Shown piece after piece: positions 2,998 through 63,632 of a DNA stretch of 64,000 bases. Location: the IMG/VR virus record IMGVR_UViG_2651869821_000001; one strand, written 5' to 3'. A program made the translations under genes and the position numbers. Numbering within the stretch: position 1 is the first letter of the stretch; each line of letters starts with the position of its first letter. This DNA comes from a virus. Its lineage: Duplodnaviria; Heunggongvirae; Uroviricota; Caudoviricetes. Below the pieces are notes generated by a model that was not told where the DNA came from, made no database searches, and was given only the letters and a program-made list of their open reading frames with translations.

Positions 2998-3114
2998 AAC
3001 CGTCAGTACCTGACAATTAACCTTTACACCGTCGCCGTAGGCATTTAGGCTATATCCCATATAAGAAAACAAGTTGTTTCATACGACTATAATTCACGCA
3101 AAGGGAGCTATCCA

Positions 3115-3780
3115 ATGACCAGGATCATTGTGGTTGGCGGCACGAAAGGCGGGCCTGGCAAATCTACAGTTGCCCAGCAAATTGCTGTATGCCTAAAAGT
3201 TAAAAAGAAAAAGAAAATCCAAATTACAGATATTGATATTCAGCGCACTACTACTAGCTGGTGTGAAGACCGACGCCAGAATGAAGATCTTGAACTTATT
3301 CCTTTCGCTTATGTGCCTGATGATATTGTAAAACACATCAAATCACTCAAAGGGCGTTTTGAATATGTCGTGGTCGATGCAGGAGGTTTCGACTCCGAAA
3401 TTCAGCGCCAAGTGATGCTGTTGGCGGACTTCATTATCATTCCGCTTCGCCCTAAACGCCGTGATCTGAAATCCCTTCGTGACATTGACCCAATTATAGA
3501 TAACGTTAGGAACGTCAACGAAAAAGTGAAGATCCGAGCAGTGATTAACCAATGCCCGTCACTACCTTCGCAGGCATCCCGTATTCTGGCTGCCAAAGAT
3601 ATTGTGGAAACATTTGGTATAGAGTCCGCCCCCGTTAATCTTTACAACCGTAACGTCTATGACGATGCAGAAGAAGCTGGTCGTTCAATTTTTGAAATGA
3701 CCGGTGCGGAACGTGACAAAAAGGCGGAAGCCGAGTTTGAAGAGTTTGTAGATTACATCTTGAGTCTGGAGGAAAAATAA
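3115..3780 (+). CDS. parA: ParA-family partition ATPase
   Basis: MTRIIVVGGTKGGPGKSTVAQ deviant Walker A, ParA-like length (221 aa), followed by a small basic partner ORF. Confidence 0.7.
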   Translation: MTRIIVVGGTKGGPGKSTVAQQIAVCLKVKKKKKIQITDIDIQRTTTSWCEDRRQNEDLELIPFAYVPDDIVKHIKSLKGRFEYVVVDAGGFDSEIQRQVMLLADFIIIPLRPKRRDLKSLRDIDPIIDNVRNVNEKVKIRAVINQCPSLPSQASRILAAKDIVETFGIESAPVNLYNRNVYDDAEEAGRSIFEMTGAERDKKAEAEFEEFVDYILSLEEK

Positions 3781-4139
3781 TGTCCATGAAAATGGGAGAC
3801 CTTGCTAAGCGCAAAGAGCCGGATGTTCAGGCTAAAAGTAACACACCTATGCGCCAGCCTGTCAGACCACAGGGCCGCCCGACTCGTGGGAAAGAAAAAA
3901 TTAAAAGCCGCACAATGTCGCTGGAAGACGAGTATTTCGAACTGCTGGAGATGATGAAGTTCATCCCTCGTTTCGAAAAGTTCACCCGTTCTGATGTGAT
4001 TCGTGCAGCCATTTTCCATCTGGCTGAGAAGTCGCCGCAGGAGATCGAGGATATCGTGAAGCTGAACGAGGCGATTACGGCTTCTGATGTAACAATGCGT
4101 ACTGATGAAATCAAGCGTGAGTTGATGAAAAAAGGCTGA
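3780..4139 (+). CDS. Small basic protein, likely partition partner (ParB/ParG-like)
   Basis: ATGA overlap with parA stop; lysine/arginine-rich N-terminus, 119 aa. Confidence 0.35.
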   Translation: MSMKMGDLAKRKEPDVQAKSNTPMRQPVRPQGRPTRGKEKIKSRTMSLEDEYFELLEMMKFIPRFEKFTRSDVIRAAIFHLAEKSPQEIEDIVKLNEAITASDVTMRTDEIKRELMKKG

Positions 4140-4169
4140 CAAATTCGGTCTGGTGCTACGATTTCAAGA

Positions 4170-4223
4170 CCTGCTTCCGTATATTAAATAATAAATAACT
4201 TATTAAATATATACGGAAGCAGG
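4170..4223. repeat. 54-bp AT-rich palindrome, copy 1 (identical copy at 52046..52099)
   Basis: CCTGCTTCCGTATATTAAATAATAAATAACTTATTAAATATATACGGAAGCAGG; 16-bp perfect arms extendable to about 27 bp with one mismatch. Confidence 0.85.
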
Positions 4224-4344
4224 CATGTTCTAACCACTACCCACAGACGAAACCCTTGCGTTTCCACTTCCCAAAAGGATCTCCAGTCGCTATGATCTGC
4301 CCATTACGATAAGTAAGTATCTACCTATCAGGCAGGGCGATCGC

Positions 4345-5079
4345 ATGAGTCAGATTTTCTTTAACACTATTGATAACAACCAGTATGACTTCATGACCGA
4401 GTGGAGCACCGTAGTTATGGACAAGTGGGTGGCTGAAAATATCGGTCTCTCACGATGCAAAGATGAAGCTGATCTGTATGAAACAAAGTGGTTCGATTAT
4501 CGCGACATGCACCCACTCATGGCCACTTGCCTTTTTACAGAAGCATACAAACGCCAGTACTCCTACATCATGTTGTCGCACGGTCGAGAGCATTTTGAAA
4601 CGGCTATTTATACGACAGGTCTTAAACGTCTGCCGTATCAGGAGTTGTCTTCAGTTAATAAAACTTCTCTCTGGAAAGCACGACAGTTTGCAGATAGGTA
4701 CTGCTGCTCATACGACTACTTCATATCCACTGTTCTGTCAGCGGCAGCAAGACGCTTATGGGACAAATTGCCACGCCCTCAACATCTATGGCAACCGGAG
4801 TTAGTGGAAATATTTGAGAAGAAATTAGCCAAACGTTACGAGACGCGTCTGGATGACTCACTGGTGAGTTTTAAACACATGGGAGACATGCAGCATGACC
4901 CGATACAAGAACGCTATTTCGAATGGGTTCTGGAGCGTTTGCGTGGCATTACGCGAGCCAAACGCATCCGGATCATTCTCTCCGCAGTATGGTTGATGGA
5001 ACTTGTGCCTGAGCGGGTAATTATTGCCAATTTTCCGGAAGAACTGGAAGAAGCAAGGCGTCTTGTTGATCCCCTCTAA
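4345..5079 (+). CDS. Hypothetical protein
   Basis: 244-aa ORF in the main plus-strand coding frame; preceded by an ATAAGTAAGTA-type motif. Confidence 0.45.
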   Translation: MSQIFFNTIDNNQYDFMTEWSTVVMDKWVAENIGLSRCKDEADLYETKWFDYRDMHPLMATCLFTEAYKRQYSYIMLSHGREHFETAIYTTGLKRLPYQELSSVNKTSLWKARQFADRYCCSYDYFISTVLSAAARRLWDKLPRPQHLWQPELVEIFEKKLAKRYETRLDDSLVSFKHMGDMQHDPIQERYFEWVLERLRGITRAKRIRIILSAVWLMELVPERVIIANFPEELEEARRLVDPL

Positions 5080-5129
5080 AGAATTTTTAGTATCAGAAAA
5101 CAAATTATTAAAACATTAAAGGAAAGCAC

Positions 5130-6470
5130 ATGACCGAACTTTGCCATACAGGACGAGGGTTATCTGAAGAGTTCGACGACGATTTCCAGAACCGACTTGC
5201 TGCCTATTTTTGTCGCGATCATGAGTTTTTGACTCGTGCCGGAGATCTGGTTGCACCAAACCAGTTTTCTAATGCAGCAAACGCCATTCTGGTAAACATG
5301 GTGTCCGGCTACTACAGAATGTACAAAAGCGCACCATCGTCGTCGGCAATACTGGATATGCTCAAACGTGCCAAACGTGATAAAACGATCCGCGAAGAAC
5401 TGTTCCCTGATGTTGTCGAGACATTTAAGCGTATTCTTGCTGAGAAGCTATCAGACACTGCGTACATGGTTGACCAGGTGGCAACATTCGCCAAAAGTGT
5501 AGCATTTGACGACGCGCTGATTAAGGCTGCTGAGATGAAGGAAAAGGGCGATTTTCAGGGCGCGATGGCGATAATGACCAAAGTGCAGCAAATCGGCTCT
5601 AACGAAGCTACCGGCATTTATGATTATCTTGCTGAATCATGTGAGCGTTATAAGGCGCGTGAGTATGAGTCATCAGACGACTATGTACCTAACAGCATCA
5701 CAACAGGTATACCTTTACTCGATAAGATGCTGTATCAAAAAGGGTGGGCGCGACGTGAAATGGTACTTTTCATGGGTTTTGCCAAGTCAGGTAAGTCTAC
5801 CGCAATGGGGGAGTTTTCCATCAACGCTACTCTAGCCGGCTACAACGTCCTGTATTTGTCTTTAGAGGTTCATACCTCGATATTGTCTGACCGTTTCGAT
5901 GCGCGGTTGTCTGAAACAGAAATGTCCAAATTGGTCGAGCGTCGAGATGATGTACATCGCAAATTGGCGGAGCTTGGCGCGACGAAAGGCATTGGAAGCT
6001 TGTGGATTGTTGAAAGACCATCTGGAAGTATGTCACCTGCAGATCTTGATCGCATGTTAAGCAGTATGAAAGCTAACGGCATGGTTCCGGATGTGGTTGT
6101 CGTCGACTATGCCGATCTTATGCGTGCAAGCTACGATTTGCGTGATGATCGCGCAAATGTTCGTAGCATCTACACAGACCTTCGAGCTCTATATGATAAG
6201 CATAACGTAGCAGGTATAACGGCATCACAGACTAACAGGGAAGGTGGCGCGTCCGAGGTGGCCACAATGATGCACGCCGCCGACAACATCGAGAAGGTGC
6301 GTATCGCTGACCTCGTTATCACTATCAACAAAACGGAAGAGGAAGAAGCGAAAGGCGAAGCGCGTCTTTATTTCGCTGGCTCACGTAACCAAAAGGGCGG
6401 AGTTAGTATTCGCGTTAAACAGAATCTTGAACAAATGCGTTTTATTGAGCGCATTCTGGACGTCCTCTAA
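5130..6470 (+). CDS. DnaB-family replicative DNA helicase
   Basis: GFAKSGKST Walker A, LYLSLEV, VVVDYADLM, ITASQTNREG and GSRNQKGGVSI motifs line up with DnaB/gp41-type helicase motifs H1 to H4. Confidence 0.8.
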   Translation: MTELCHTGRGLSEEFDDDFQNRLAAYFCRDHEFLTRAGDLVAPNQFSNAANAILVNMVSGYYRMYKSAPSSSAILDMLKRAKRDKTIREELFPDVVETFKRILAEKLSDTAYMVDQVATFAKSVAFDDALIKAAEMKEKGDFQGAMAIMTKVQQIGSNEATGIYDYLAESCERYKAREYESSDDYVPNSITTGIPLLDKMLYQKGWARREMVLFMGFAKSGKSTAMGEFSINATLAGYNVLYLSLEVHTSILSDRFDARLSETEMSKLVERRDDVHRKLAELGATKGIGSLWIVERPSGSMSPADLDRMLSSMKANGMVPDVVVVDYADLMRASYDLRDDRANVRSIYTDLRALYDKHNVAGITASQTNREGGASEVATMMHAADNIEKVRIADLVITINKTEEEEAKGEARLYFAGSRNQKGGVSIRVKQNLEQMRFIERILDVL

Positions 6471-6529
6471 AAAGAAGGCGTGGGGGAACGCTCCCACGCC
6501 GGTCTCCATAAGAGAACAAATTTTCTCTT

Positions 6530-7741
6530 TTGCCAAAGCCACAAAAGAAAAAACACATGAGCCTTTATGGTATTCAAATACTGAGGCTTATCAAGAAACT
6601 ACCTGCAAAAAGTAGGGCTAAGAACGTGAGCGACTTGAAAGAATTACTGACCGAGCTGGATTTCGAGCAATGGCTCGATATGGAGGGGATCATCTATCGT
6701 CGTGGTGGCGTCAGTACTCGTGGACGAGAGGTAAACATCAAGGAGTGCCCGGTCTGCGGTAGCTCTAACTGGAAGGTTTATTTCAACCTGACCAATGGCG
6801 TCGGCAAATGCTTTGCTGGTGATCATCCAGAAGAGATTCAGTTCAACAAGCTGGTCTTCCTCAAGCACTACAGCGGCAAATCCCGTCGCGATTTTGAAGA
6901 GTACGTCCAGAACGCGCTGATTTCACAAGGATGGGCGCCGAAGAAGGAAGAGCTCGTGCTGGCCAGCAAGGTTGAATTGGAGGGGCCAGTAGCACTTCCA
7001 CGTCATTACGCACTCCCTATTGACGGTCGTCTTCCTGATTATCTGGTGGAACGCCATATTTCCCCGGAACTGGCCAAATACTTTGATCTGCGTTACTGCG
7101 TAGAAGGTAAGCACGCATACGTCGATCCGTACACAGACCAAGTCAAAGGGCAGGTGTTTGATATGCGCATCCTGATACCGGTTTACGATCTGGATGGCGT
7201 GATGAAGACCTTCCAGGGGCGTGACATTACCGGTGCAGCAGAACGCCGTTATCTCTTCCCCATGCAGTTGCCGGCGTCAGGTAAGTTTCTCTACAACGGC
7301 CACAACGCAGTCGGAAAACAAACGGTCGTTGTGTGTGAAGGGGCATTTGACGTAATGGGCGTGAAGCGTGCCATTTTCGACGAAGAGACGCTGCGGGATT
7401 ACGTGGAACCAATTGGCACGTTCGGGATGCACTTATCCGGAAATATGAATGAGGATGCTGAAGATCAGTTGGGCGCGTTCCTGACGCTCAAGGTGCATGG
7501 ATTACGCAACGTCATCATGATGTGGGATAGCGAGAAACAGGCGATCCGCAACACAATGTCGGCAGCAAGACGGCTCGCCAGTCTTGGTTTTAACGTTAAA
7601 GTTGCTTGTCTGGGAGAAGAAGGACTCGATCCTGGAGGTACAACATCAGAACAGATCCTTAAAGCCTACTATCGAGCCAAGCCATACACCAAGCACCTTG
7701 AACTACAAAGTAAGGTACACGGCATTAAAGCTCTTGTATAA
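6530..7741 (+). CDS. DNA primase (Zn-ribbon plus TOPRIM)
   Basis: CPVCGSS..C..H zinc-binding region and VVVCEGAFDVMGV TOPRIM acidic motif; directly downstream of the helicase. Confidence 0.7.
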   Translation: MPKPQKKKHMSLYGIQILRLIKKLPAKSRAKNVSDLKELLTELDFEQWLDMEGIIYRRGGVSTRGREVNIKECPVCGSSNWKVYFNLTNGVGKCFAGDHPEEIQFNKLVFLKHYSGKSRRDFEEYVQNALISQGWAPKKEELVLASKVELEGPVALPRHYALPIDGRLPDYLVERHISPELAKYFDLRYCVEGKHAYVDPYTDQVKGQVFDMRILIPVYDLDGVMKTFQGRDITGAAERRYLFPMQLPASGKFLYNGHNAVGKQTVVVCEGAFDVMGVKRAIFDEETLRDYVEPIGTFGMHLSGNMNEDAEDQLGAFLTLKVHGLRNVIMMWDSEKQAIRNTMSAARRLASLGFNVKVACLGEEGLDPGGTTSEQILKAYYRAKPYTKHLELQSKVHGIKALV

Positions 7742-7821
7742 ATTGCATGCCGCAAATGATAAGTAGATGCATACTTATTTTTCTGTAAGAATATGCGCGA
7801 CGAAGGAATTGAGGAACCTTT

Positions 7822-8616: not shown

Positions 8617-8633
8617 GCCTCGATAAACCATTT

Positions 8634-8656
8634 AGCCCCCTGGTGGGGCTTTTTTA
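8634..8656 (+). terminator. Rho-independent terminator
   Basis: AGCCCCCTGGTGGGGCT stem followed by TTTTTT. Confidence 0.7.
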
Positions 8657-8697
8657 AACTGCGCTTAATAAGTAAGTACACGACTATGGTTGGAAGT

Positions 8698-9174: not shown

Positions 9175-9208
9175 AAACTCTCGACCTACCGATGGAGGTT
9201 AAACATTA

Positions 9209-10531: not shown

Positions 10532-10690
10532 TGCTCGGTTGGATGATCGTTTTTTTGGGTGTCGGTTTCGTCATCGGAATTCTGGTGATGTCCAGCTGTA
10601 TCAACGATTACGTGAAGCGCGGGCTGATGGAAAGACGTGGTCGCATATGCCGCATCATCGAAATTACTAACACGCTAAAGGAGACTGGCG

Positions 10691-12070: not shown

Positions 12071-12145
12071 TGCGAAATTGATGGTGTAGCTCAGTGGTAG
12101 AGCGGTTGACTGTTAATCAACTGGTCGGTGGTTCGAATCCACCCA
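12071..12145 (+). tRNA. tRNA-Asn (anticodon GTT), CCA encoded
   Basis: Hand-folded cloverleaf: acceptor GATGGTG/CATCATC (one G-U), D arm GCTC-AGTGGTA-GAGC, anticodon arm GTTGA-CTGTTAA-TCAAC, T arm GGTGG-TTCGAAT-CCACC, discriminator G, CCA. Confidence 0.85.
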
Positions 12146-12147
12146 TC

Positions 12148-12339
12148 ATCGCCAATGTGCATATGTCTCATAACCTGGAGCAAGGTTTAGCTGGCCAAGC
12201 GACGAAGGGTGAAGCCGGGTGGCTGGATTGAGCGGTTGGGAAGTGAAAGTCTTAATGAAATCTCCCAGAAATATCCGGATGAGTAAGAGAGAAAGTAAAA
12301 AGGATGAGTAATGGAGCAGGTCAGGTTCGAATCCTGGTA
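12148..12339 (+). ncRNA. tRNA-like element: 5' acceptor half and 3' T-arm/acceptor/CCA separated by about 180 nt (interrupted or intron-containing tRNA?)
   Basis: GTGCATA starts 2 nt after tRNA-Asn. 192 nt downstream lies TCAGG-TTCGAAT-CCTGG-TATGCAC-G-CCA, where TATGCAC is the exact complement of the 5' 7-mer. I could not fold a complete cloverleaf in between. Confidence 0.25.
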
Positions 12340-15177: not shown

Positions 15178-15444
15178 TTAAATTTCGTTTAATTCTCGGA
15201 CGAGACTACCTTTCAACTTTCTGCGTAATAGTGTGGCAGATGAATGTTTTTTGCCCGCAGAAAGACCAGCTTTAAGGCCGCGTAAATACGCCTCGGAGTT
15301 AGCGGGGTGAGTCTTCAACTCGGCAGTAACCAACGCCTGCAAAACCTTCTTCTCACCATTAATAGAGCCGAGAAGTGCGGTGCGTTCGTGCTTATTGTAA
15401 TACGACATAGCAGGCTCTCCCCTCTGTAATTGTTTTGTACGCAT
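15178..15444 (-). CDS. Hypothetical small basic protein
   Basis: 88-aa minus-strand ORF (likely start MSYYNKHER); overlaps the 3' end of the upstream minus-strand gene. Confidence 0.3.
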   Translation of the reverse strand: MRTKQLQRGEPAMSYYNKHERTALLGSINGEKKVLQALVTAELKTHPANSEAYLRGLKAGLSAGKKHSSATLLRRKLKGSLVRELNEI

Positions 15445-15961
15445 GTAAGTCTTCCGGTATCAGTGGTCGCGGAGCTTTCTTTGGCAACCCTGTACGTATA
15501 TTATAGCGCGGTTCACTTTTTAACCCAAGCATATAGTCATAGGTCTCTTCAAGAGTCGTGCGGCGCCCAATGTCCACGACACCACCAGAAGCGGCCTGGA
15601 ATACAAATCCACCAATGTTAAATTTTTCATAGTGCGCGATTAGCGCCAATGAAACCGTTTGCAAAACCACAGCACTCCCTAATCCCTCAAATTTGACGTG
15701 GCGGAAGTCGGCCAAACCATCCATACCGTCAAAAACGTCAAAATAAACTTCTGCCATTCCGTTTGCAGGAAATGCAATGCCAGGGGGCATCTCGTATCCG
15801 ATTCGAGTGAAGGTCACTTCGTCAACCAGACTCCCCACAATAACGGTATATACTTCATTGCCGGCAACAAAAACGTAGCTGTGATGAACTCGATGATCAT
15901 AAACGAATTTTTTTCGTCTCATCCCATAATCATCGAGAAAAACTTCTTCTTCTATGCGCAC
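15392..15961 (-). CDS. Hypothetical protein
   Basis: 189-aa minus-strand ORF, no motif I can name. Confidence 0.4.
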   Translation of the reverse strand: MRIEEEVFLDDYGMRRKKFVYDHRVHHSYVFVAGNEVYTVIVGSLVDEVTFTRIGYEMPPGIAFPANGMAEVYFDVFDGMDGLADFRHVKFEGLGSAVVLQTVSLALIAHYEKFNIGGFVFQAASGGVVDIGRRTTLEETYDYMLGLKSEPRYNIRTGLPKKAPRPLIPEDLHAYKTITEGRACYVVLQ

Positions 15962-16073: not shown

Positions 16074-16168
16074 GACAAAAAACCGTTAAGTTTATGTTGA
16101 TCCTATAAGAAACAATGCCTAATATACTGTTTATGCATACAGTAAAGGCGTAACTCAGTGATTGGACT

Positions 16169-17275
16169 ATGAAAAATTCCTTTGATAGAGCACGCGCAGC
16201 CGAGAACACCTCTCAAGAGACGATTGAATATCTCGACCGAGCATCACAAATGACTACGATGGCAGCCTCTCTGGTAAGTGGCGACATGCGGTTTTCAGAT
16301 GCTTTTCAGTTATTCACTCGCTTATCTTTACTGATAACAAGACGTCGACCGGAAATAGCAGTTCACTGCATTTTGATACATGTTTTGCCATTCATAGCAG
16401 ATGTAAAAGTAAGTGATATAAACAGGGTTTTAGTCAACCAACTGGTGAACCCACTGATACTGGAAGGCAAGATAGTTATGGGGAGACGCGTGTTTTCCCT
16501 GATGAAACAATTTCTGGGATGGTGTGCCTTTCAAGGGATGATTGATACATCTCCTCTTAACGATCTGTCGCTGAACAAGGTCGCCGGTGGTGCCAAACCT
16601 GCACCGCGAGAAAGAAAGTTGACTGATGCCGAAGTCTGGGTTTTTTGGAATGTCTGGGATTATTTTAATGTATGCCCTGGTACAAAATGGGCCGCTAGAC
16701 TCTGTCTCGTAGCCGCTAGACGGCCAGATGAAGTACTGCGAGCTGGAGTACAGGAGTTTGATTTAAAAAGAGGTGTATGGAATCAAGGTACACGTAACAA
16801 ATCAGCCAGACATCATTCACTACCTTTAAGTTCGCTGATGAAGAAGTGCGTTGAGGAGCTTATCAATTATGGCAAAGGTAGCAAATGGCTCGTTCCGTCT
16901 AATAAGCAGCCAGGAAAAGATGTTCCTATGTCTAAGGTGGCCATAGCACAAGCTTTAAGAAGGATTCTTGAACGCCCTGAGCTTATGGATGTGGAAGCAT
17001 TTACACCACGAGATTTAAGACGTACAGCTAGAAGCTATTTTCCAGCATTAGGGATTAATCCTGAAGTCTCGCGTAAGATTATGAATCACAGCCTTGAGGG
17101 AATGGATCGCGTCTACGATCGACACGATTACATGGATGAGATGCGAGTCGCCCTGGAAGGTTTTTCGACATACATCGCATCCATAGTAAATCAAAACGAT
17201 TTAGACGAGATAGACCACAAATTCAAGGGAGATCGTCTAGCCACCGAGCTTATTCGTATAAACTTCTCACAGTGA
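16169..17275 (+). CDS. Tyrosine site-specific recombinase (Cre/XerD-like; probable multimer resolution or integration)
   Basis: C-terminal catalytic-domain pattern ..RPDEVLR..HSLPLS..LVPSNKQ..TPRDLRRTARS..MNHS..YDRHDY; 368 aa. Confidence 0.8.
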   Translation: MKNSFDRARAAENTSQETIEYLDRASQMTTMAASLVSGDMRFSDAFQLFTRLSLLITRRRPEIAVHCILIHVLPFIADVKVSDINRVLVNQLVNPLILEGKIVMGRRVFSLMKQFLGWCAFQGMIDTSPLNDLSLNKVAGGAKPAPRERKLTDAEVWVFWNVWDYFNVCPGTKWAARLCLVAARRPDEVLRAGVQEFDLKRGVWNQGTRNKSARHHSLPLSSLMKKCVEELINYGKGSKWLVPSNKQPGKDVPMSKVAIAQALRRILERPELMDVEAFTPRDLRRTARSYFPALGINPEVSRKIMNHSLEGMDRVYDRHDYMDEMRVALEGFSTYIASIVNQNDLDEIDHKFKGDRLATELIRINFSQ

Positions 17276-17653
17276 CTTGATGGCTTCAACAACCTTTTCA
17301 GAAGCGCCATGCTGACCATCAAAGCGCTGGCGAAACGCTTCTAAAACTTTCTTTTCGTCCGGAGAAAGAGGCGCTGTACCTTCTTCTCTAAAGAACTCCA
17401 GGAGTTCTGGGTGGCGCTCTTCAAGCACCATCAACATCAGACGAACAGGGTCGGCCCCAAGAGCATTTGCCAGTGGGCGAACCTTATCAATCGGTAAAGG
17501 GATTTTGCCACTCTTGATAAGCGAAAGGTTATTAGGGTTTTTATAACCTATTTCACTGGCAATAGTTGCCTGATTTTTAGAAGAAATCGTAATTAGAGAA
17601 TCGATGTATGCAGCGTATCGACCTGATTTATTTTCTGTTTCTTTGGTAGCCAT
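17267..17653 (-). CDS. XRE-family HTH transcriptional regulator (repressor-like)
   Basis: QATIASEIGYKNPNNLSLIKSGK helix-turn-helix; 128 aa; convergent with the recombinase and divergent from downstream plus-strand genes; palindromes in its 5' region. Confidence 0.7.
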   Translation of the reverse strand: MATKETENKSGRYAAYIDSLITISSKNQATIASEIGYKNPNNLSLIKSGKIPLPIDKVRPLANALGADPVRLMLMVLEERHPELLEFFREEGTAPLSPDEKKVLEAFRQRFDGQHGASEKVVEAIKSL

Positions 17654-17915
17654 AGTTAAACCTTGCGTGTTTTGTTTATCTCTGGTAAGTGCTTACCGAT
17701 ATTACAGTAAAGGCTAGGGTTGTAAAGACTTATCTATCTATTTTAGAAGGCATCAAAGTACTTGCCAAGCGGCAGTATAACACGGCTCAAGTTACTTATC
17801 TTGCCTGGTTATGAAGGAGAAAAGTGAGATATATCTGATATAGATATATTTAGTTTTGATACAATAGGTAGTAGTATTTGATAAAATTTAACCGTGTTCA
17901 GTTGGATGATATGAA

Positions 17916-18128
17916 ATGAAAAATATTACTTCTGATTTGACCGCCCTTGAGGTTGGAACAGCTTATGCGCTAAAAGAGGAAAATGCCGCGACAATTCTTA
18001 CCGAGTTCCCAGCTGTTGAGCTACCCCTGGACATGAACGATGCAACCGCATTCAAGTTTGAGTATTGCAACAAGCGCTTCACTTTGATTAACACCGGCTG
18101 CGGCTCAATAGCAGTTAGAACGAATTAA
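17916..18128 (+). CDS. Hypothetical small protein
   Basis: 70-aa ORF after the divergent promoter region. Confidence 0.35.
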   Translation: MKNITSDLTALEVGTAYALKEENAATILTEFPAVELPLDMNDATAFKFEYCNKRFTLINTGCGSIAVRTN

Positions 18129-18236
18129 CCTAACTTCCCACCTCCGTGACCTGTACGAACAGTTTTGATGCCTGTTCGTACAGCGCTAAATTACTAACAC
18201 AAGAAAACAAATTGTTTTAGCGACAAGGAAAATCTC

Positions 18237-29649: not shown

Positions 29650-29710
29650 TCACTTGAAAATATATAAGTACTTACTTATCATGCAGGAAACAAACAACTA
29701 AAGGAAACAC

Positions 29711-30756: not shown

Positions 30757-30790
30757 ATTACGGCGTCGAGTTGGACGCCGTAATTTTTTA
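30757..30790 (+). terminator. Rho-independent terminator
   Basis: TTACGGCGTC-GAGTTG-GACGCCGTAA followed by TTTTTT. Confidence 0.8.
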
Positions 30791-30839
30791 GTTATTATCT
30801 AAATTAAGAAAACAAATTATTTAGAAGGATGATTAATTT

Positions 30840-31664
30840 ATGCCTAACCATGTAACTAATGAGATCCGCGTTGTTGGTGGAACCAATAAGCAACGCCTTG
30901 CTTTCATACGAGCCATTACCAATAAATTCGGACTCATTGACTTTAACAACATTTGCAAACGCCCAAAAAGTATGGACATCGAAGAAAGCGGTGCCGTTGA
31001 AGCAATGGCGACAGCCATTGCTGGATATCCTATGAGTAATTTCTATTTTGGCGAAGTCAAAACGCCAAAAGAAGTTGAACTCGATCTGATTCAACGTGGA
31101 ACCACTCAGAAATATCTCCGTAAGATAAAGGCCCACGCACTGCTTCGCATTGAGAATAAGCGTCGTTACGGTTTTTATTCATGGTACGACTGGTCACGAG
31201 CTAATTGGGGAACCAAGTGGAATGCGTATAGCGTAGAAATGCCTATAAAACGCGTCAAACAACGAATCAAGTACGGACACGAACACCGCAAAACTCATGT
31301 TCGAGCATATGCAAAGCGCCTGTTTAAAAAACGTTTGGCGAGACACGCTATAAGTGGTGGTGATTTGGTTATTCGTTTCGATACAGCCTGGAATTGTCCT
31401 GAACCAGTTTATCACGTACTGGCAAGTCGCTTCCCTCATCTAGAATTCATCGTTCATTACGCTGACGAGGATATAGGTAGTAACTGCGGCTCTATTGTTC
31501 TTCGTGGAGGCAAATTGGATTCCGAAGATATTGCGCCACCATATAGCGAACAATCACCAGAAGAAAAATTGAAATGGCGAAAATTCGCCTTTGAATTGTG
31601 TCACCCTGGAGCTACACCACAAGAATACAACATGGATGAAAATTATGAATATTTGAATGAGTAA
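30840..31664 (+). CDS. Hypothetical protein with Trp-rich motifs
   Basis: 274 aa; YSWYDWSRANWGTKWNA and RFDTAWNCPEP motifs. Confidence 0.5.
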   Translation: MPNHVTNEIRVVGGTNKQRLAFIRAITNKFGLIDFNNICKRPKSMDIEESGAVEAMATAIAGYPMSNFYFGEVKTPKEVELDLIQRGTTQKYLRKIKAHALLRIENKRRYGFYSWYDWSRANWGTKWNAYSVEMPIKRVKQRIKYGHEHRKTHVRAYAKRLFKKRLARHAISGGDLVIRFDTAWNCPEPVYHVLASRFPHLEFIVHYADEDIGSNCGSIVLRGGKLDSEDIAPPYSEQSPEEKLKWRKFAFELCHPGATPQEYNMDENYEYLNE

Positions 31665-44250: not shown

Positions 44251-44336
44251 AACGTTGTATACCTTGTTTAACCAAATAAGATAACAATTTGTTTTATAAA
44301 TCAATAAAACAATTCAATTACATCAAAGGTAAACTA

Positions 44337-58495: not shown

Positions 58496-58578
58496 AATAA
58501 AGGTCGCAATTATTGCCTTAAACAAATTGTTTTCTACCTTTTCTAAACTGTGAAAATAACAGCGTTTGAAACAGATGG

Positions 58579-58875
58579 ATGCTGAACATGACAGATAAAG
58601 ATAACCACTATCGTTTCCTGCGCGATCACTACAAACATGAGCGTTTCGAAGGTCGAAACAGTCCTGTCTGGGGGCATGACTATGCGGCATGTATTGAGAG
58701 AAGCGCCAGAGAGTCTTTGGAAAAGTATGGCTTTTCGGTGATCTCATGTCACGAGTCTAAAACTGGTGAAGCGATTTTTTATGACAGAAAGCTGAATATT
58801 CTCAAGGGTGAACAAATTAAACGAGCACTTCACGGTGCTTATTTGAAAGCAAAGAAAGAGAAAAAATATGAGTAA
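58579..58875 (+). CDS. Hypothetical protein
   Basis: 98-aa ORF. Confidence 0.4.
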   Translation: MLNMTDKDNHYRFLRDHYKHERFEGRNSPVWGHDYAACIERSARESLEKYGFSVISCHESKTGEAIFYDRKLNILKGEQIKRALHGAYLKAKKEKKYE

Positions 58876-59278: not shown

Positions 59279-59817
59279 GCATAACTGTAGAAAAGATTAA
59301 CGTTTTGTCCTTCATCATAACAGGCGCTGAACGCCTCGACCCTGTTCGCGTGATGATTGAAAACATTGAGCCGGGTAAAGGTCTGCTCACTATTACCTGC
59401 TTTGGCCGGTCATGGAATGGCTCCTGGGGTTCGATGGGCGGCGATACGGTTCAGGAGTTCATTAAACGCGTCAGCAATGACTATCTGATCGGCTGTTTAG
59501 CTCCACGACTTGAAAGTACCGTTGATGCTGACAATGAGGCAAATCTCATCTTTGTTAAGTCGCAAATCATAAAGCTTCGCCGCGAACGTGAAATTGATAG
59601 AGGGGAAGCCCGTGAAATGTGGACCGAGGCTAATGATGCAGAGAATGTGAAAGCTAACTGCTGTGATTTTCTGGTCGGTGACAAGCTTTTAAACCTGTTT
59701 GGTGACGATTCGTGGTACGCGGGCTGGCCCACAGTACTAAACCCTGAATATCAATATCTAGATCGCGTTATTAACGCGGTTCGTGACGGCATGGCAGAAA
59801 TGGAGCGTGCAGCATGA
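59275..59817 (+). CDS. Hypothetical protein
   Basis: ATGA overlap. Confidence 0.4.
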   Translation: MSITVEKINVLSFIITGAERLDPVRVMIENIEPGKGLLTITCFGRSWNGSWGSMGGDTVQEFIKRVSNDYLIGCLAPRLESTVDADNEANLIFVKSQIIKLRREREIDRGEAREMWTEANDAENVKANCCDFLVGDKLLNLFGDDSWYAGWPTVLNPEYQYLDRVINAVRDGMAEMERAA

Positions 59818-59851
59818 CAGCACTCGACAAAAAAGCAGAAGGAGCAGCCCA

Positions 59852-60211
59852 ATGATCAATATCGACAAAATCAATGACCATGAACTGGTTGATCTGAAAA
59901 ACGCTATCGAAAGAGAGCTTAAACGACGCGCTGAAGGGCCAAAAGTCACCACGTATTATGTCGTATCCTGCATCACTGATTCTCAGCATTTTACTGATTT
60001 GGACTGCGCCTTACGTTGCTTAAAAAGTGTCACCGAAGACCTTATGGAGTGGGTAGCGGAATCCCCAGAAAACCGGGATTACGTCAATCGATGCACAGGC
60101 ATTGTTGGGGCAAAACTCCAAGTGGAGGAGATGAATCTCGATCACTTCAACATGTGCGTCGCAGAAAAATATTTCGACGATATTTGTTATCCACCGGAGA
60201 CAGCCCAATGA
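59852..60211 (+). CDS. Hypothetical protein
   Basis: Start at ATG 59852 (MINIDKINDHELVDLKN); the track ORF start at 59783 overlaps the upstream gene. Confidence 0.4.
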   Translation: MINIDKINDHELVDLKNAIERELKRRAEGPKVTTYYVVSCITDSQHFTDLDCALRCLKSVTEDLMEWVAESPENRDYVNRCTGIVGAKLQVEEMNLDHFNMCVAEKYFDDICYPPETAQ

Positions 60212-60253
60212 GCAACATCGACAAACAGGCGCTGCGTATTGAGAGGGGGTGAG

Positions 60254-60430
60254 ATGAGTAACTTCCACGAACGCAAAGTTCGTCGAACTGAATATTACCA
60301 ACGTTTCGTTTTTGGCTGGAAGCTGCGTCCCTGCACGTCGTGTAACGGCAGTGGTTATTACGACCACAACGGTAGTCCGAAATGCTCGTCCTGCAATGGC
60401 ACAGGCAAAGAGCGGTACAAACCAAATTAG
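60254..60430 (+). CDS. Small zinc-finger protein with two DnaJ-type CxxCxGxG motifs
   Basis: CTSCNGSGY and CSSCNGTGK; 58 aa from ATG 60254. Confidence 0.45.
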   Translation: MSNFHERKVRRTEYYQRFVFGWKLRPCTSCNGSGYYDHNGSPKCSSCNGTGKERYKPN

Positions 60431-60481
60431 TAGAATTACGGCAGAAATTAAACGCCGCTGGCATCGGTAAGGGGATGTGAA

Positions 60482-60700
60482 ATGACAAAAATACTCCGGA
60501 AGAATTATCCACGTCAAAGTCGGTTTAAAGAGGCTCTATTTTTCCTTCTCTTTCTTATTTTAATGGTTCCAATATCACCGATATTCTTCATCTGGTTAGC
60601 AGGCGTACAGGCAGAAAAAATAGCCGAGTGGTATAGCTCCATCGTATGGGGGCCATTTAATAAACTGCACAACAAATTAAATCCGTACAGGGAGGGCTAA
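60482..60700 (+). CDS. Small membrane protein
   Basis: ALFFLLFLILMVPISPIFFIWLAGV hydrophobic core. Confidence 0.4.
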   Translation: MTKILRKNYPRQSRFKEALFFLLFLILMVPISPIFFIWLAGVQAEKIAEWYSSIVWGPFNKLHNKLNPYREG

Positions 60701-60703
60701 CCC

Positions 60704-62269
60704 ATGACCACTATTACCAGAGAACAGGCACAGAAAATAATTGAAGCAGCCGATGATGTTATCAATGCCATCGCAGGAAATCATGATGACGTTAGCCCGG
60801 AAAGCGACGGAATGTTACGCCTGTGGGACGACCTGAACGACCGTTATGCACCTCCAGAAGTTGTGCGCGAGCTGGCGCGTATCGCGCTGGCATCTCTCGA
60901 AGCGGAACCTATTGGCGCTTTCCACATTGCCGATCAGCAGGTGGGCGGAACCTCGGATTATATCAAGGATGGCGAGTGGCCCATCGATAATGGAGTCATT
61001 GAGGTATATGCCGCCCCGCCAGCGTCAGAACGCGAACGTATTCGCCATGAACATGCTGAATGGTCTTATGCCGACCCCGTTGTGTTCACCGACGAACGAA
61101 ATCTTCGTCACATTGCCAGTGGCCGAGAAACCTCTTTGATTTGGGGTAAACAAAACCAGGAGGTGGGAGATATCCCGCTCTATCGTCACGCCCCGCCAGC
61201 GCCGGCTGTAATTCAAAGCAGTCAGCTATTACACGACTTTTACCGAGCATATGCTGATTGGCTCATCAGCGGTGGCGATGGGCAGTTTTCGTGTGTGAAC
61301 GGATTATGTGCAAATCTGTTTGATTACTGCGACCGTAAAGGTGTCGGCAGTGCACAGGCGCTTAATGAAATGCATGTTCAATTTGTCACTGCGGGCATGA
61401 ATGAAAAGCTACCGTTTAACACCAGTGTCAGTGATTTCGATGCGGAAAGTGCTGATGGTAAATGCCACCTGAATACTGCACGCCGTAAATGGGTTTTCAG
61501 GCGAATTATTGACGGAGTTAAGCCAGTGCCGGTAGTGCCGGATGAGTGGACTATTGAGGATGCTGTGAAGTTTTGCAGGGAAACTGGAAGACAAGATGCT
61601 GGCTCAGCTATGGAGGCATGGAACGCCTGTCGCACTGCCATGCTCAACGCCGAGCCGCTGCGTGCCATCCAGACCGCGCCAGCATTGGATTTCTTGAATA
61701 AAAACGCCGCTCCGCTGCATGCCACCCCCAAAGGAAATAGACTCCGTATTGCGGAAGGTGAATTTGCAGCATATTTCCCGCAAGAGCGGCCTGTGTCCGG
61801 AGCGCGCGTAATTGCCTGGGATGAGAGCGGTCATTTGTTGGGTATCGGATTCGGTCGCGATACCCGAGGATCAGGCATCGCAATAGTTGTTGAGGGGAAG
61901 AAGTACGACTCAAATCATATTATCCACTGGTGCAACTATCCGGCGATCCCTGAAGGTTTAAATATTCGCGCTATCGCCGCGCTTCGTGCCGCCGTACGTA
62001 ATCAGTGGCTGAAGTCTGATAATTTTGCAGACAAGGTTTACTGGAAGAGCATGCACTCTATTGCCAATGAGATCGTCGAGGCAATGATGAAAAATGAGCC
62101 ACATCAACCTACCGAAAACCATATCCCATCCCGCGAAGCCATTATTGCTGGTGGCGTTTTGGTCCAATGCCCTCGATGCTATAACGATTCTTACCGTTTG
62201 AATGTTAATGGTCTGACTCATTATTGGTGCGACAAGTGTGCAAACTCCATTACTTCGGAGAGCAAATGA
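60704..62269 (+). CDS. Hypothetical protein (521 aa)
   Basis: Shares a WNACR-AMLN segment with the next gene; C-terminal CxxC..C..C. Confidence 0.5.
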   Translation: MTTITREQAQKIIEAADDVINAIAGNHDDVSPESDGMLRLWDDLNDRYAPPEVVRELARIALASLEAEPIGAFHIADQQVGGTSDYIKDGEWPIDNGVIEVYAAPPASERERIRHEHAEWSYADPVVFTDERNLRHIASGRETSLIWGKQNQEVGDIPLYRHAPPAPAVIQSSQLLHDFYRAYADWLISGGDGQFSCVNGLCANLFDYCDRKGVGSAQALNEMHVQFVTAGMNEKLPFNTSVSDFDAESADGKCHLNTARRKWVFRRIIDGVKPVPVVPDEWTIEDAVKFCRETGRQDAGSAMEAWNACRTAMLNAEPLRAIQTAPALDFLNKNAAPLHATPKGNRLRIAEGEFAAYFPQERPVSGARVIAWDESGHLLGIGFGRDTRGSGIAIVVEGKKYDSNHIIHWCNYPAIPEGLNIRAIAALRAAVRNQWLKSDNFADKVYWKSMHSIANEIVEAMMKNEPHQPTENHIPSREAIIAGGVLVQCPRCYNDSYRLNVNGLTHYWCDKCANSITSESK

Positions 62270-62973
62270 CACTAATCATCCAATCCGAGGCTTATATCAT
62301 TGGTATAGAGAAGGCACTAGACGATTCAGAGCGCACCGTTGGGAGCATCATCGAACCGCAGAAAGACGGATCTCTACGTGTTGTGGCTACGTTCAATGAG
62401 GCAGTAGCTTCCGTCATAGAGCAGCTGGACAACAAGGTACGCGCCGCCGAACAGCGCGTAAAAGAGATGGAAGCGAAACAGCAGCATGTCAGCCTGAAAC
62501 CGCAGCCGCTAACACTGGCGAACGAGACGATGGACGTTGATCGCCTGCGTGAAATCGCTGAAGAGGACAATGGTAGCGACGTTAAGTTTGAATGCTCAGT
62601 GATGGCGCGCATGCTGCTTTCTGTGGCCCTAAACAGCGATCCAGTGGCCTATACCGACGCGGAGGAGTTGGAGAGCCTGGAAGGAGTTGATGGGCACTCT
62701 TACGCGCACCTGTGGCCAAACTCCTACGGTTTCGGCAAAGACATTGCGCTCTATACCGTTCCGCAGATGATGCCGCTGCCGGTGAACATCCTGGACGATG
62801 AAACCAATCGGGACGTCTTTGAAGCCTGGGTGGCGGACTATACCGGCCATACCAAAGGCTTTGTGCGCCAGTTCCGAGTAGACGACAAATACCGTATCGA
62901 CTCGATGTGGAATAAATACTGGAACACCTGGAACGCTTGTCGCGCTGCCATGCTCAACGGAGGTAAATCGTGA
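62266..62973 (+). CDS. Hypothetical protein ending in the WNACRAAMLN motif
   Basis: ATGA overlap with the upstream stop. Confidence 0.45.
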   Translation: MTLIIQSEAYIIGIEKALDDSERTVGSIIEPQKDGSLRVVATFNEAVASVIEQLDNKVRAAEQRVKEMEAKQQHVSLKPQPLTLANETMDVDRLREIAEEDNGSDVKFECSVMARMLLSVALNSDPVAYTDAEELESLEGVDGHSYAHLWPNSYGFGKDIALYTVPQMMPLPVNILDDETNRDVFEAWVADYTGHTKGFVRQFRVDDKYRIDSMWNKYWNTWNACRAAMLNGGKS

Positions 62974-63329
62974 AAGAGAATCAAATCCGAGAACTGGTTA
63001 ACGAGCTGCGTGATATTGCTATTGAGTATCACGGCACACAACAGTTACGTGAACAAATTGCGCGTACAGTTCGTGCAGCGATAATTCAGGCCGGCAACTC
63101 TCCGGTAACTCCGGATGGTTGGATTCCAGTAAGTGAGCGGATGCCCGAAAATAAACCGGGTAGCTACGAGTACATTGTGTTTGAGTCGTTAAATAATCGC
63201 GCGCATCACGATTACTGGAATGTGCCAGATGGCTCTTGTGATGATTTCTCTCCATTCTGGAATCACTATGGAAAGTATGTAACTCACTGGATGCCACTGC
63301 CGGCAGCACCGCAGCAGGAGGAAAAGTAA
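62970..63329 (+). CDS. DUF551-like phage protein
   Basis: DGWIPVSERMPE..THWMPLPAAPQ pattern that I recognise from DUF551 proteins. Confidence 0.5.
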   Translation: MKENQIRELVNELRDIAIEYHGTQQLREQIARTVRAAIIQAGNSPVTPDGWIPVSERMPENKPGSYEYIVFESLNNRAHHDYWNVPDGSCDDFSPFWNHYGKYVTHWMPLPAAPQQEEK

Positions 63330-63632
63330 TGCAACCATTTGGGAAATTCTATTCGGTTGATGGTTGTACCTGTTCGTTGTGTCGCTCACGAGGCTACAGA
63401 AAAGGAAACGGATATGATGCTGAATTGAGAACCTGTAAACATCGAGCTCGTCAGCAGAGTAAGCGACTGATTGATAAGGAGTTAAGATAGTTCGAAGGCA
63501 TTCGCGATTATTGATCAAACTGAACTATAGCAGGAGCAGTAAACAATTTGTTTTCAGAGTTAAGTTATTATTTCACCATTCAAAATTGACCAACATTTGC
63601 TTTAATTTATACTGTATGAAAATACAGTATTC

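Follow-up and report, generated by a model that had tools for sequence, protein, structure and literature searches.

A conserved palindrome in promoter cassettes of SSU5-type phage-plasmids is a predicted binding site of a plasmid-encoded regulator

Results

Nine intergenic copies of the motif

The DNA analyzed here (the window, 64,000 nt) is a stretch of an SSU5/pHCM2-type phage-plasmid of Salmonella. A recurrent motif, GAAAACAAWTTGTTTA, with a 13-base palindromic core, AAACAAWTTGTTT, is found at nine loci in it (Table 1). It is called motif 2 here to separate it from the ATAAGTA family (motif 1). The first-pass annotation had described it as a second cis-regulatory class upstream of a subset of genes, distinct from that family, and this description holds; all nine of its main sequences were recovered in place. 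The symmetry of motif 2 is incomplete, as a conserved GA extends one arm of GAAAACAAWTTGTTTA. Two sites, 58526 and 63547, are inverted relative to the other seven.

Table 1. Motif 2 sites and candidate regulatory genes in the window.
Feature	Position	Strand	Centre	Score (bits)	Following gene (distance from centre to start)	Remarks
GAAAACAAGTTGTTTC	3065..3080	+	3073	28.8	parA, start 3115 (42 nt)	Downstream of TTTACA-17-TAGGCT (3023-3051), upstream of TATAAT (3089-3094)
GAAAACAAATTATTAA	5096..5111	+	5104	23.6	DnaB-like helicase, start 5130 (26 nt)	Right arm degenerate
GAAAACAAATTGTTTT	18203..18218	+	18211	27.5	vWA/CobT-like gene, start 18237 (26 nt)
GAAAACAAATTATTTA	30808..30823	+	30816	25.6	ORF 30840..31664 (24 nt)	26 nt past a strong intrinsic terminator (30757-30784)
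GATAACAATTTGTTTT	44280..44295	+	44288	25.5	nrdB, start 44337 (49 nt)	Preceded by the hairpin and T-run that follow nrdA
GAAAACAAATTGTTAA	54405..54420	+	54413	25.1	ORF 54441..54995, phrog_5508, N-terminal CxxC (28 nt)
GAAAACAATTTGTTTA	55387..55402	+	55395	30.9	DUF4942 methyltransferase, start 55414 (19 nt)	Orthologue alignment; -10-like AATAAT (55370-55375) ends 20 nt upstream of centre
GAAAACAATTTGTTTA, distal-type, inverted	58519..58534	-	58526	31.4		Upstream of TGn-extended -10-like GAAAAT
GAAAACAAATTGTTTA, inverted	63540..63555	-	63547	26.9	ORF 63633..63911; its LexA-controlled promoter is ~70 bp downstream	Proximal-type geometry on minus strand, AATAAT ending 20 nt upstream of centre
parA, 221-aa Walker-type partition ATPase	3115..3780	+				First gene behind site 3073
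Candidate binder, 119-aa basic protein	3780..4139	+				Start/stop overlap with parA
Xre-type HTH protein (cI-like), alternative candidate binder	17267..17653	-				phrog_8, E = 7e-11

A weight matrix was trained on phage SSU5 and Klebsiella pJN2-26 only, and the window was then scanned. The nine loci scored 20-31 bits, each at least 20 bits, while 0.24 matches of at least 14 bits are expected by chance in Markov-shuffled windows. Outside these nine loci, no locus in the window exceeded 10.5 bits. The sub-threshold matches (at most 16 bits) were the reverse strands of the nine palindromes and one match 25 nt from site 44288. When up to two mismatches were allowed, AAACAAATTGTTT gave 21 strand-matches, whereas dinucleotide shuffles gave 3.9 ± 1.9, and none of 100 shuffles reached this number. 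Six loci, each of them intergenic, match AACAAWTTGTT exactly. Intergenic DNA makes up only about 10% of the window, yet it holds all nine sites. Enrichment over shuffles and intergenic location are thus both borne out.

At the seven gene-proximal sites, the palindrome centre lies 19-49 nt before the start codon, which narrows the 10 to 90 bp proposed earlier. A weaker member had been proposed at 6503..6523. It scores 0.7 bits, is conserved in neither SSU5 nor pJN2-26, and was dropped as a non-member.

Conservation in the SSU5-like family

When SSU5, Klebsiella pJN2-26, Cyrano, and more distant elements are compared, motif 2 is the best-conserved block of the orthologous intergenic regions. AnCo3 carries about 20 sites, at orthologous and extra positions, and both kinds of position are also occupied in SSU5, pJN2-26, Cyrano, and the distant L138, L142, L144, and L145. 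In three orthologous intergenic alignments, motif 2 is the most conserved block, whereas the nearby -10 and spacer diverge; the central base switches between A and T. Site 18211 is the longest fully invariant block of its alignment, in which the -10 region varies. Site 3073 has the same sequence in AnCo3, SSU5, pJN2-26, and Cyrano; L142, L144, and L145 carry a variant of it. The orthologues of site 5104 match the motif better in pJN2-26, Cyrano, L142, and L145, and site 44288 is kept in SSU5 and Cyrano. Site 58526 has orthologues in AnCo3 (60237), SSU5 (85602), pJN (21773), and L138 (18033); its proximal partner, degenerate in the window, is present in AnCo3 and SSU5. In IMG/VR, the loci with at least three motif 2 sites are all SSU5-like. 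These comparisons support purifying selection on motif 2 across the phage-plasmid family.

Motif 2 is part of a promoter cassette

The sites belong to a repeated cassette. It often begins with the terminator hairpin of the preceding gene, followed by an optional distal copy, TAAACAAWTTGTTTTC, centred at about -38. Then come a putative sigma-70 -10 of the GATAAT/GAAAAT/TATTAT type, often with TGn and without a good -35, the conserved stretch (A/T)ACACCAAYAA, the proximal copy GAAAACAAWTTGTTTA, centred at about +14, and a Shine-Dalgarno sequence and start codon.

The geometry was determined from 144 gene-proximal contexts. The last base of a -10-like xxTAAT hexamer, which is often TGn-extended, lies 20 nt upstream of the palindrome centre: position -20, counted from the centre, is T in 89% of the contexts, and position -22 is A in 74%. 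This spacing would place the centre near +14 of the putative transcript. In 32 of the 144 contexts, the centre of a second site lies exactly 51 bp upstream; about one-fifth of cassettes have such an inverted copy, at about -38. The start codon follows the centre at a median of 26 nt (10th-90th percentile, 19-41 nt). Because this distance varies and the spacing to the -10 is fixed, motif 2 is taken to be locked to the promoter and not to the ribosome-binding site. A generic sigma-70 scan found no canonical -35/-10 pair at motif 2 sites, so the +14 and -38 assignments are taken solely from the -10-like element.

Based on the family-wide conservation and the fixed position shortly past the probable promoters of nine transcription units, motif 2 is considered to be a putative binding site of a plasmid-encoded regulator, and this prediction is almost certainly right. 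Of the two readings offered by the first-pass annotation, that of an operator class is the better supported, by the purifying selection and by the operator-like position.

Double-stranded DNA site or RNA structure

The other reading was a translational operator. As RNA, motif 2 would form a hairpin worth only -0.7 kcal/mol, and shuffled leaders fold at least as well as the natural ones. No covariation between the arms was found over 178 distinct sites; the counts of Watson-Crick, G-U, and mismatched pairs equal the expectation for independent arms. Independent arms and a negligible hairpin indicate that motif 2 is a sequence-specific protein site rather than a structure. The distal and the isolated inverted copies show the same asymmetric consensus, including the GA extension, on the non-coding strand. 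This favours a protein binding double-stranded DNA, which would read either orientation alike, as an RNA binder would not. Dyad conservation covers both arms, including C at -3 and G at +3. Conservation is stronger in the left arm with GA than in the right arm, possibly because of a constraint on one strand, at the level of RNA or promoter.

The translational reading is weakened by these results and keeps support from an RNA-binding regulator of the FljA type encoded in the family. This FljA homologue is a tandem Hfq-like (Sm-fold) protein. The proximal copies might be its 5'-leader target, at which translation would be repressed and early mRNAs destabilised, as by Salmonella FljA on fliC mRNA or T4 RegA on early messages; we regard this as unlikely. 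A full-length homologue is a core gene, present in every SSU5-like genome examined that covers the region (Pfam PF03614, E = 1.5e-65 to 3e-81; 35% identity with Salmonella FljA). It is also found in Klebsiella elements, and Klebsiella is not known to have flagella. Yamamoto and Kutsukake are said to have found in 2006 that FljA binds fliC mRNA directly. FljA blocks fliC mRNA translation according to the report cited in PMC2652032. In most cassettes, 1-12 nt separate the end of the proximal site from the Shine-Dalgarno sequence; the sites lie in short leaders directly 5' of it, as in these systems, and the targets would include many early messages. Motif 2 also runs from an A-rich into a U-rich tract, and its 5' arm is the better conserved, as would suit such a target. 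However, motif 2 is phased to the -10 element, its dyad lacks any pairing constraint, and the -38 and isolated inverted copies, which lie outside leaders, keep the consensus complete on the non-transcribed strand. Few shared proteins are less conserved than the FljA homologue (~61%; 37% in L138), while motif 2 is invariant, and no copy lies near the operon of this homologue. The fliC leader is not significantly similar to the cassettes (P about 0.04-0.10). T4 RegA sites overlap the AUG.

Candidate binding proteins

The reading to which we give about an even chance is that motif 2 is a double-stranded DNA operator in a repeated promoter cassette, bound by a plasmid-encoded repressor, with the 3780..4139 product as the first candidate. 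The gene lies within the operon behind site 3073. The parA orthologues are annotated as AAA ATPase or ParA in AnCo3, SSU5, and Cyrano, and parA homologues match Pfam CbiA, MipZ, and ParA. In the candidate, a disordered N-terminus rich in Arg and Pro precedes KSRTMSLEDEYFELLEMM...FTRSDVIRAAIFHLAE, a segment resembling a ribbon-helix-helix (RHH) pattern; the fold is putative, as RHH fold searches gave no confirmation and the sequence is not similar to that of ParG, omega, or CopG. Between SSU5, pJN2-26, and Cyrano the candidate shows 92-95% identity, compared with 58-66% for the cI-like and FljA-like proteins in these lineages. Homologues of 50% identity still have the putative DNA-reading segments KSRTMS and FTRSDVIRAAI unchanged, and the plasmids with these homologues retain motif 2. 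The product may be a type-Ib partition/centromere-binding protein doubling as a global repressor. Type-Ib centromere-binding proteins usually bind repeat arrays adjoining the par operon. Against this assignment, there is a single palindrome before parA and no repeat array beside it, and a 54-bp hairpin at 4170-4223, unlike motif 2, occupies the possible centromere position.

It is improbable that the binder is the cI-like repressor (17267..17653) or its divergent 70-aa partner, with motif 2 as further lysogeny-switch operators. The cI-like product is a phrog_8 transcriptional regulator, and an HTH dimer would suit the 17-bp extended palindrome of motif 2. Its Cyrano orthologue is expressed at 96 in lysogens and listed as a putative repressor (PMC9928086). 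However, the cI/cro-type divergent intergenic region contains a conserved GGTAAGTGCTTACC (17684-17697), with TAAGT half-sites like motif 1, and no motif 2 site. The cI-like protein is only 65% and the partner 46-50% identical between lineages sharing an invariant motif 2, and SSU5, without the cI-like gene, has all motif 2 sites intact. The more probable partner of the cI-like protein is the ATAAGTA/TAAGT family.

There is also little probability that no dedicated factor exists and that the palindrome, as part of a duplicated promoter/leader module, owes its conservation to an intrinsic role, for example in promoter escape, as an unstructured A/U-rich translational enhancer, or in cassette recombination, as in T4 PeSL cassettes. 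The cassettes are alike over ~60-75 bp, including (A/T)ACACCAAYAAGA and the -10, many small variable genes have one in front, and some keep AGAAAA while the right arm is lost. In T4 PeSL, too, a terminator hairpin and early promoter module is repeated before small, variable genes; that phage belongs to a different family, and the cassette here differs in its conserved palindrome with operator-like placement. Orthologues keep the palindrome while the rest of the cassette diverges, the conservation of both arms would not be required by an enhancer or escape element, and copies occur outside the cassette context, at -38 and in the terS leader.

A host protein, IHF-like or another nucleoid-associated factor, is very improbable: it would explain the invariance of motif 2 in elements from Salmonella, Escherichia, Klebsiella, and Enterobacter, and CAA-N4-TT partly resembles the IHF core, but two specified IHF consensus positions are mismatched and the site clusters in IMG/VR are restricted to SSU5-like contigs. 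We know of no enterobacterial regulator with a motif 2-like site.

Discussion

The preferred operator reading resembles repression by partition proteins, such as N15 SopB (dispersed IR1-4), RK2 KorB (12 OB palindromes), pSM19035 omega, and TP228 ParG (RHH). Shared features are short palindromic or inverted-repeat sites dispersed over the replicon, one of them at the par operon promoter, and a small ParA ATPase followed by a small basic protein. RHH partition proteins show a unit spacing of 7-8 bp, which the 8-bp arm spacing of motif 2 matches. KorB class-I operators lie at about -39/-40, a position resembled by the distal copy (about -38). Here, by contrast, parA has no repeat array beside it, and the RHH fold is putative in the candidate. 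The family also has two ParB_N proteins, which are encoded elsewhere, and no HTH was detected in either.

In the proposed mechanism, a conserved plasmid-encoded protein would bind each 5-bp arm (AAACA / TGTTT, 8 bp centre to centre) and block RNA polymerase binding or escape. Copies 51 bp apart (about five helical turns, both inner arms with GA) may clamp the core promoter from two sides. In Cyrano lysogens, site-bearing genes are expressed at 7.1 (terS), 7.8 (vWA), 12.9 (nrdB), and 21 (helicase), with a background of ~9, and the 3780..4139 orthologue at 89 (PMC9928086 supplementary table). The genes behind the sites are read as background-level, supporting repression; against this, parA carries a site yet is expressed at 50 (same table).

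P1 C1 likewise uses one regulator site at many promoters, overlapping them, across a ~100-kb plasmid-prophage. Its operators are asymmetric 17-mers (ATTGCTCTAATAAATTT), unrelated in sequence to the predicted 13-bp palindromic operator. As in P1, the dispersed predicted operators would silence replication and lytic functions in the lysogen, and replication, nucleotide-metabolism, accessory, and packaging operons would be kept quiet in the plasmid-prophage state.

The Window and Its Relatives

The window shares 98% identity with the Salmonella plasmids CP119474.1 and NZ_KY515226.1 ("AnCo3"), ~82% with phage SSU5, and ~76% with phage-plasmids of E. coli and Klebsiella. It is thus the half of an SSU5/pHCM2-type phage-plasmid that carries the replication, nucleotide-metabolism, and accessory genes. 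Almost every gene is on the plus strand, and more than 1,300 PLSDB records match the window.

Features discussed in the text (window coordinates unless a genome is named)
Feature	Coordinates	Strand	Remark
Motif-2 site	centre 3073		parA
Motif-2 site	centre 5104		DnaB-like helicase gene
Motif-2 site	centre 18211		vWA/CobT-like gene
Motif-2 site	centre 30816		ORF 30840
Motif-2 site	centre 44288		nrdB
Motif-2 site	centre 54413		ORF 54441
Motif-2 site	centre 55395		DUF4942 methyltransferase gene
Motif-2 site	centre 58526		distal copy
Motif-2 site	centre 63547		isolated copy
Two-site cassette	58519-58580; SSU5 L005 38310-38400
terS leader element	AnCo3 80692-80770 (L002:30692-30770); SSU5 (L004) 50-130
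parA	3115..3780		221-aa ParA
Candidate binder gene	3780..4139	+	119-aa basic protein; N-terminus disordered, Arg/Pro-rich
54-bp hairpin	4170-4223; 52046-52099		CCTGCTTCCGTATATTAAATAATAAATAACTTATTAAATATATACGGAAGCAGG
tRNA gene	12080-12151
CYRAN_43 homologue	15392..15961	-
LexA box	16125-16144		TACTGTTTATGCATACAGTA
Integrase gene	16169..17275
Xre-type cI-like HTH gene	17267..17653	-	in cI/cro-like module 17267..18128
Palindrome of the module	17684-17697		GGTAAGTGCTTACC
70-aa ORF	17916..18128		divergent, in cI/cro-like module
Motif 1	29654-29682		ATAAGTA..TACTTAT
LexA box	63610-63629		TACTGTATGAAAATACAGTA
92-aa ORF	63633..63911
FljA homologue	AnCo3 73452..73976	-	outside the window; full-length relative of Salmonella FljA

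Sequence and Distribution of Motif 2

Motif 2 is a genuine cis-regulatory site, specific to the family and under strong selection, that is placed like an operator within a repeated promoter cassette. The first-pass annotation had described nine main palindromes of this kind, and all of them were found at the positions it gave. The 13-mer with up to two mismatches has 21 strand-matches in the window against 3.9 ± 1.9 in shuffles, and six loci, every one of them intergenic, carry the exact AACAAWTTGTT. A 26-column weight matrix, trained only on sites from SSU5 and the Klebsiella phage-plasmid pJN2-26 to avoid circularity, recovered nine loci at 20-31 bits. Every other locus in the window scored at most 10.5 bits; the sub-threshold matches, up to 16 bits, are the opposite strands of the same palindromes and one match beside site 44288. 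The chance expectation from shuffled windows is 0.24 matches at 14 bits or above. Intergenic DNA, which makes up ~10% of the window, holds all nine sites. A further "weaker" palindrome proposed at 6503..6523 scored 0.7 bits, is not conserved in the relatives, and was dropped.

The consensus over 178 distinct sites from SSU5-like sequences is GAAAACAAWTTGTTTA. The 13-bp core is palindromic, with a free central base, somewhat relaxed positions at +/-1, and nearly invariant arms AAACA and TGTTT. Only one arm has a conserved GA extension. This GA arm is the better conserved one: its per-position values are 94-100% (168-178 of 178 sites), compared with 84-100% (150-178) in the other. Among the 178 sites, variation in one arm is independent of variation in its partner: the counts of Watson-Crick pairs, G-U pairs, and mismatches at the six potential pairs are those obtained by dealing the right arms at random. 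The proximal form of the motif folds as RNA at only -0.7 kcal/mol. Five leaders and the bare motif range from -0.7 to -3.5 kcal/mol, the natural leaders fold no better than their shuffles (z ~0), and the palindrome is usually unused in the fold. The independence of the arms and the negligible folding indicate that the symmetry reflects two half-sites recognized by a protein, not base pairing. A structured RNA, a terminator, or a REP-like hairpin was rejected, given the -0.7 kcal/mol stem and the lack of compensatory changes. The Rfam search returned only a tRNA gene (75.5 bits) and nothing at motif sites. The position equivalent to this tRNA gene is annotated as tRNA-Asn in SSU5 and pJN2-26.

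In orthologue alignments of the window, SSU5, and pJN2-26 upstream of the vWA, helicase, and methyltransferase genes, the conserved blocks are motif 2 and the Shine-Dalgarno sequence. Upstream of the vWA gene, GAAAACAAWTTGTTT is kept between the window and pJN2-26 while the -10 region differs, and the central base of the motif switches between A and T among orthologues. The motif is thus conserved beyond its surroundings in orthologous regulatory regions, distant relatives included. It is unchanged in the distant relative L138 and in the lineages L142, L144, and L145, whose par proteins are 50-75% identical. Beyond the window, AnCo3 has ~10 more sites, concentrated in the small-gene region at 64-71 kb, and the leader of terS, which encodes the small terminase, holds a further two. 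SSU5, pJN2-26, and the related phage-plasmid Cyrano show the same picture. Among 119 IMG/VR loci with one exact copy, every locus with at least three sites is SSU5-like; unrelated contigs have single matches only, presumably by chance.

The Promoter Cassette

At seven of the nine window sites, those tabulated with a gene or ORF, the GA arm is on the coding strand, and the ATG of that gene begins 19-49 nt downstream of the palindrome centre. The geometry was pooled from 144 gene-proximal contexts in SSU5-like DNA. A -10-like hexamer, xxTAAT, ends exactly 20 nt before the palindrome centre, with T at -20 in 89% and A at -22 in 74% of the contexts. In many cassettes the hexamer reads GATAAT, GAAAAT, or TATTAT, frequently behind a TGn, as in a putative sigma-70 extended -10 promoter. 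The start codon lies at a variable distance (median 26 nt, 10th-90th percentile 19-41 nt). The cassettes have no good -35 hexamers, and a generic sigma-70 consensus scan calls no canonical promoters at the sites; the transcription start is therefore placed by inference. If transcription starts ~7 nt past the hexamer, the palindrome would be centred at ~+14. With the start so placed, motif 2 would have a fixed position over the core promoter or the initial transcribed region, as a promoter-occluding operator has.

In 32 of the 144 contexts a second, inverted copy is centred exactly 51 bp upstream (~-38), so placed that the GA extensions of both copies face the core promoter. Site 58526 belongs to this distal class; the proximal copy paired with it is degenerate in the window but preserved in AnCo3 and SSU5. 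Often a distal copy comes right after the upstream gene's terminator hairpin, and a strong terminator precedes site 30816. Taken as a whole, the two-site cassette forms a large imperfect palindrome with the core GTTATT-N6-AATAAC, so that the distal sites show the promoter-proximal geometry on the minus strand. Read on that strand, the terminator hairpin of the upstream gene comes next. It is conceivable that short antisense RNAs with the self-complementary motif are made from two-site cassettes.

In the terS leader of AnCo3 and SSU5, two motif-2 sites 25 bp apart are followed by a GC-rich hairpin with a T-run and then the start codon. The hairpin and T-run resemble a terminator set between the promoter and the late operon, which suggests that the packaging genes are controlled by attenuation or antitermination.

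Expression in Lysogens

RNA-seq is available for Cyrano, which is SSU5-like, in lysogens of E. coli LF82, where the background is ~9 normalised reads (PMC9928086). The genes behind motif-2 sites have 7.1 (terS), 7.8 (vWA), 12.9 (nrdB), 21 (helicase), and 50 (parA) normalised reads; the protein after parA has 89, the cI-like protein 96, and the FljA homologue 18 (PMC9928086). The near-background values behind the sites indicate that the cassettes are off in the lysogen, which is indirect evidence that fits repression of the motif-2 genes. By far the highest-expressed gene in the same data is CYRAN_43, with ~7,000 reads against the background of ~9 (PMC9928086). Neither Pfam nor PHROG gives a match for its homologue in the window, and this locus could conceal an abundant regulatory RNA or a defence gene.

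DNA or RNA Recognition

The first-pass annotation had suggested a second operator class or a translational operator. The operator-like placement stands, while the translational version is weakened: the sites are not all in leaders, in sense orientation, and tied to the ribosome-binding site, as shown by the inverted copies and the start codon distance of 19-41 nt. We give about even credence to the reading that motif 2 is a double-stranded DNA operator of a conserved plasmid-encoded repressor, with the ParG-like protein encoded after parA as the first candidate.

That motif 2 is an RNA-level operator read by the FljA homologue is rather unlikely. Direct binding of fliC mRNA by FljA is said to have been described by Yamamoto and Kutsukake in 2006. 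According to work cited in PMC2652032, FljA reportedly blocks translation of fliC mRNA. The homologue, which belongs to PF03614, is present in AnCo3, SSU5, pJN2-26, Cyrano, and L138, and is modelled with high confidence as two Hfq-like Sm domains, so that a putative cognate RNA-binding regulator is encoded by the element. Two observations speak for the RNA reading: proximal copies adjoin the Shine-Dalgarno sequence in most cassettes, and the 5' arm is the more conserved arm. Four others speak against it. The site is phase-locked to the -10 element rather than the ribosome-binding site; the full asymmetric consensus is kept on the non-mRNA strand by the inverted copies at -38 and by isolated ones such as site 63547; there is neither a pairing constraint nor a stable hairpin; and paired copies are at a strict 51-bp (~five-turn) spacing. 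Thus, double-stranded DNA is favored. In addition, the FljA homologue is among the fastest-evolving shared proteins (58-63% identity, 37% in L138), whereas the motif is unchanged.

An extension of the RNA reading, which we consider quite unlikely, is that the FljA homologue, with its tandem Hfq-like/Sm domains, runs a post-transcriptional network whose recognition element is motif 2. As the core is self-complementary, leaders that carry it could also base-pair with short antisense transcripts of the inverted distal copies, and the Hfq-like protein would act as matchmaker for these pairs. If this were true, the Salmonella phase-variation repressor FljA would be a domesticated copy of a phage regulator.

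Autoregulation of the fljA-like operon by motif 2 was rejected: it has no site to act on, and the promoter region there has motif 1, the separate ATAAGTA family, instead. The fliC leader and the cassettes have CCAATAA, CAAGTTGT, and AAGGA in common, but this resemblance is not significant in local alignments of real fliC leaders with cassettes against shuffles (P ~0.04-0.10).

The chance that the cI-like Xre-type protein is the binder is small. A Pfam/PHROGs screen covered ~40 small proteins whose genes lie behind the sites or within the regulatory region, and only this protein showed a clear DNA-binding domain. It is 65% conserved and is absent from SSU5, which keeps all motif-2 sites. The palindrome between the genes of its module is conserved and ATAAGTA-like, and motif 2 is absent from that control region. 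Two ParB_N proteins and an 88-aa protein encoded before terS are conserved at 88-91%, with no DNA-binding domain detected in them. It is equally improbable that no dedicated factor reads the site. A host factor is the least probable binder, and we know of no IHF, KdgR, LacI-family, PhoP, RcsB, or CsrA site that fits motif 2.

The ParG-Like Candidate

For the DNA-operator reading, the 119-aa protein is the first candidate. Its ORF overlaps the stop codon of parA, whose 221-aa product is of the small type that lacks an N-terminal DNA-binding domain; a small ParA gene is thus followed by a small gene of putative centromere-binding type. Judged from sequence, the two look like a type-Ib partition pair. 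The small member of such pairs (ParF/ParG, delta/omega) as a rule binds DNA and controls its own operon. After its N-terminus, the sequence KSRTMSLEDEYFELLEMM...FTRSDVIRAAIFHLAE has, by eye, the strand, helix A, and helix B pattern of a ribbon-helix-helix protein. The protein is 92-95% identical between the window and SSU5, pJN2-26, and Cyrano, and would rank ~4th among ~65 shared proteins, above ParA. An invariant site repeated ~20 times per genome is what is expected for an invariant reader. In homologues of 50% identity, MGDLAKR, the basic arm, KSRTMS, and FTRSDVIRAAI are invariant, and their plasmids keep the motif. In a co-variation test across lineages with a diverged ParG-like protein, both the motif and the putative DNA-reading segments were unchanged, which is consistent with a ParG-like binder and not discriminating.

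Against this candidate, the par operon shows no type-Ib repeat array; only one palindrome (3065-3080) is located upstream of parA. A possible centromere position, immediately behind the par operon, is taken up by a 54-bp perfect AT-rich hairpin that differs from motif 2. The window has two identical copies of this hairpin, and in AnCo3, SSU5, and pJN2-26 a third is found upstream of the terS leader. The hairpin may be a centromere or a bidirectional terminator.

SOS Boxes and Motif 1

The TTGACC-16-TATACT promoter upstream of the 92-aa ORF has a LexA box over its -10, and another LexA box precedes the integrase gene. These two canonical boxes suggest SOS-coupled induction, for example through an anti-repressor. 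Ciprofloxacin induces Cyrano 39-fold (PMC9928086), and SOS-coupled induction through the LexA boxes fits this. A predicted TTGAAA-17-TATCAT promoter in the window has motif 1 across its spacer and -10. Motif 1 is also enriched in SSU5, which has no cI-like gene, including the structural gene region (28 occurrences against 4.8 expected).

Implications

Phage-plasmids of the SSU5/pHCM2 type occur commonly in Salmonella, E. coli, Klebsiella, and Enterobacter, and they bear resistance genes (PMC9600943, PMC12217456). No description of their regulatory circuitry was found in the searchable literature; searches for SSU5 operators and repressors and for the literal motif sequence returned only primers and unrelated papers. 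In that literature the motif-2 sequence, the cassette, and the likely binder are undescribed. The site gives a handle on this circuitry, as a defined 16-bp element with ~20 copies per genome. As a dispersed operator or centromere network it resembles those of P1 (C1), N15 (SopB IR1-4), RK2 (KorB), and pSM19035 (omega). Should the binder be the partition protein, segregation of the plasmid and silencing of lytic genes would be coupled, as in N15 and RK2. The site, its cassette, and the candidate binders bear on how the genes for replication, nucleotide metabolism, and packaging stay silent in the plasmid state and are switched on after SOS induction.
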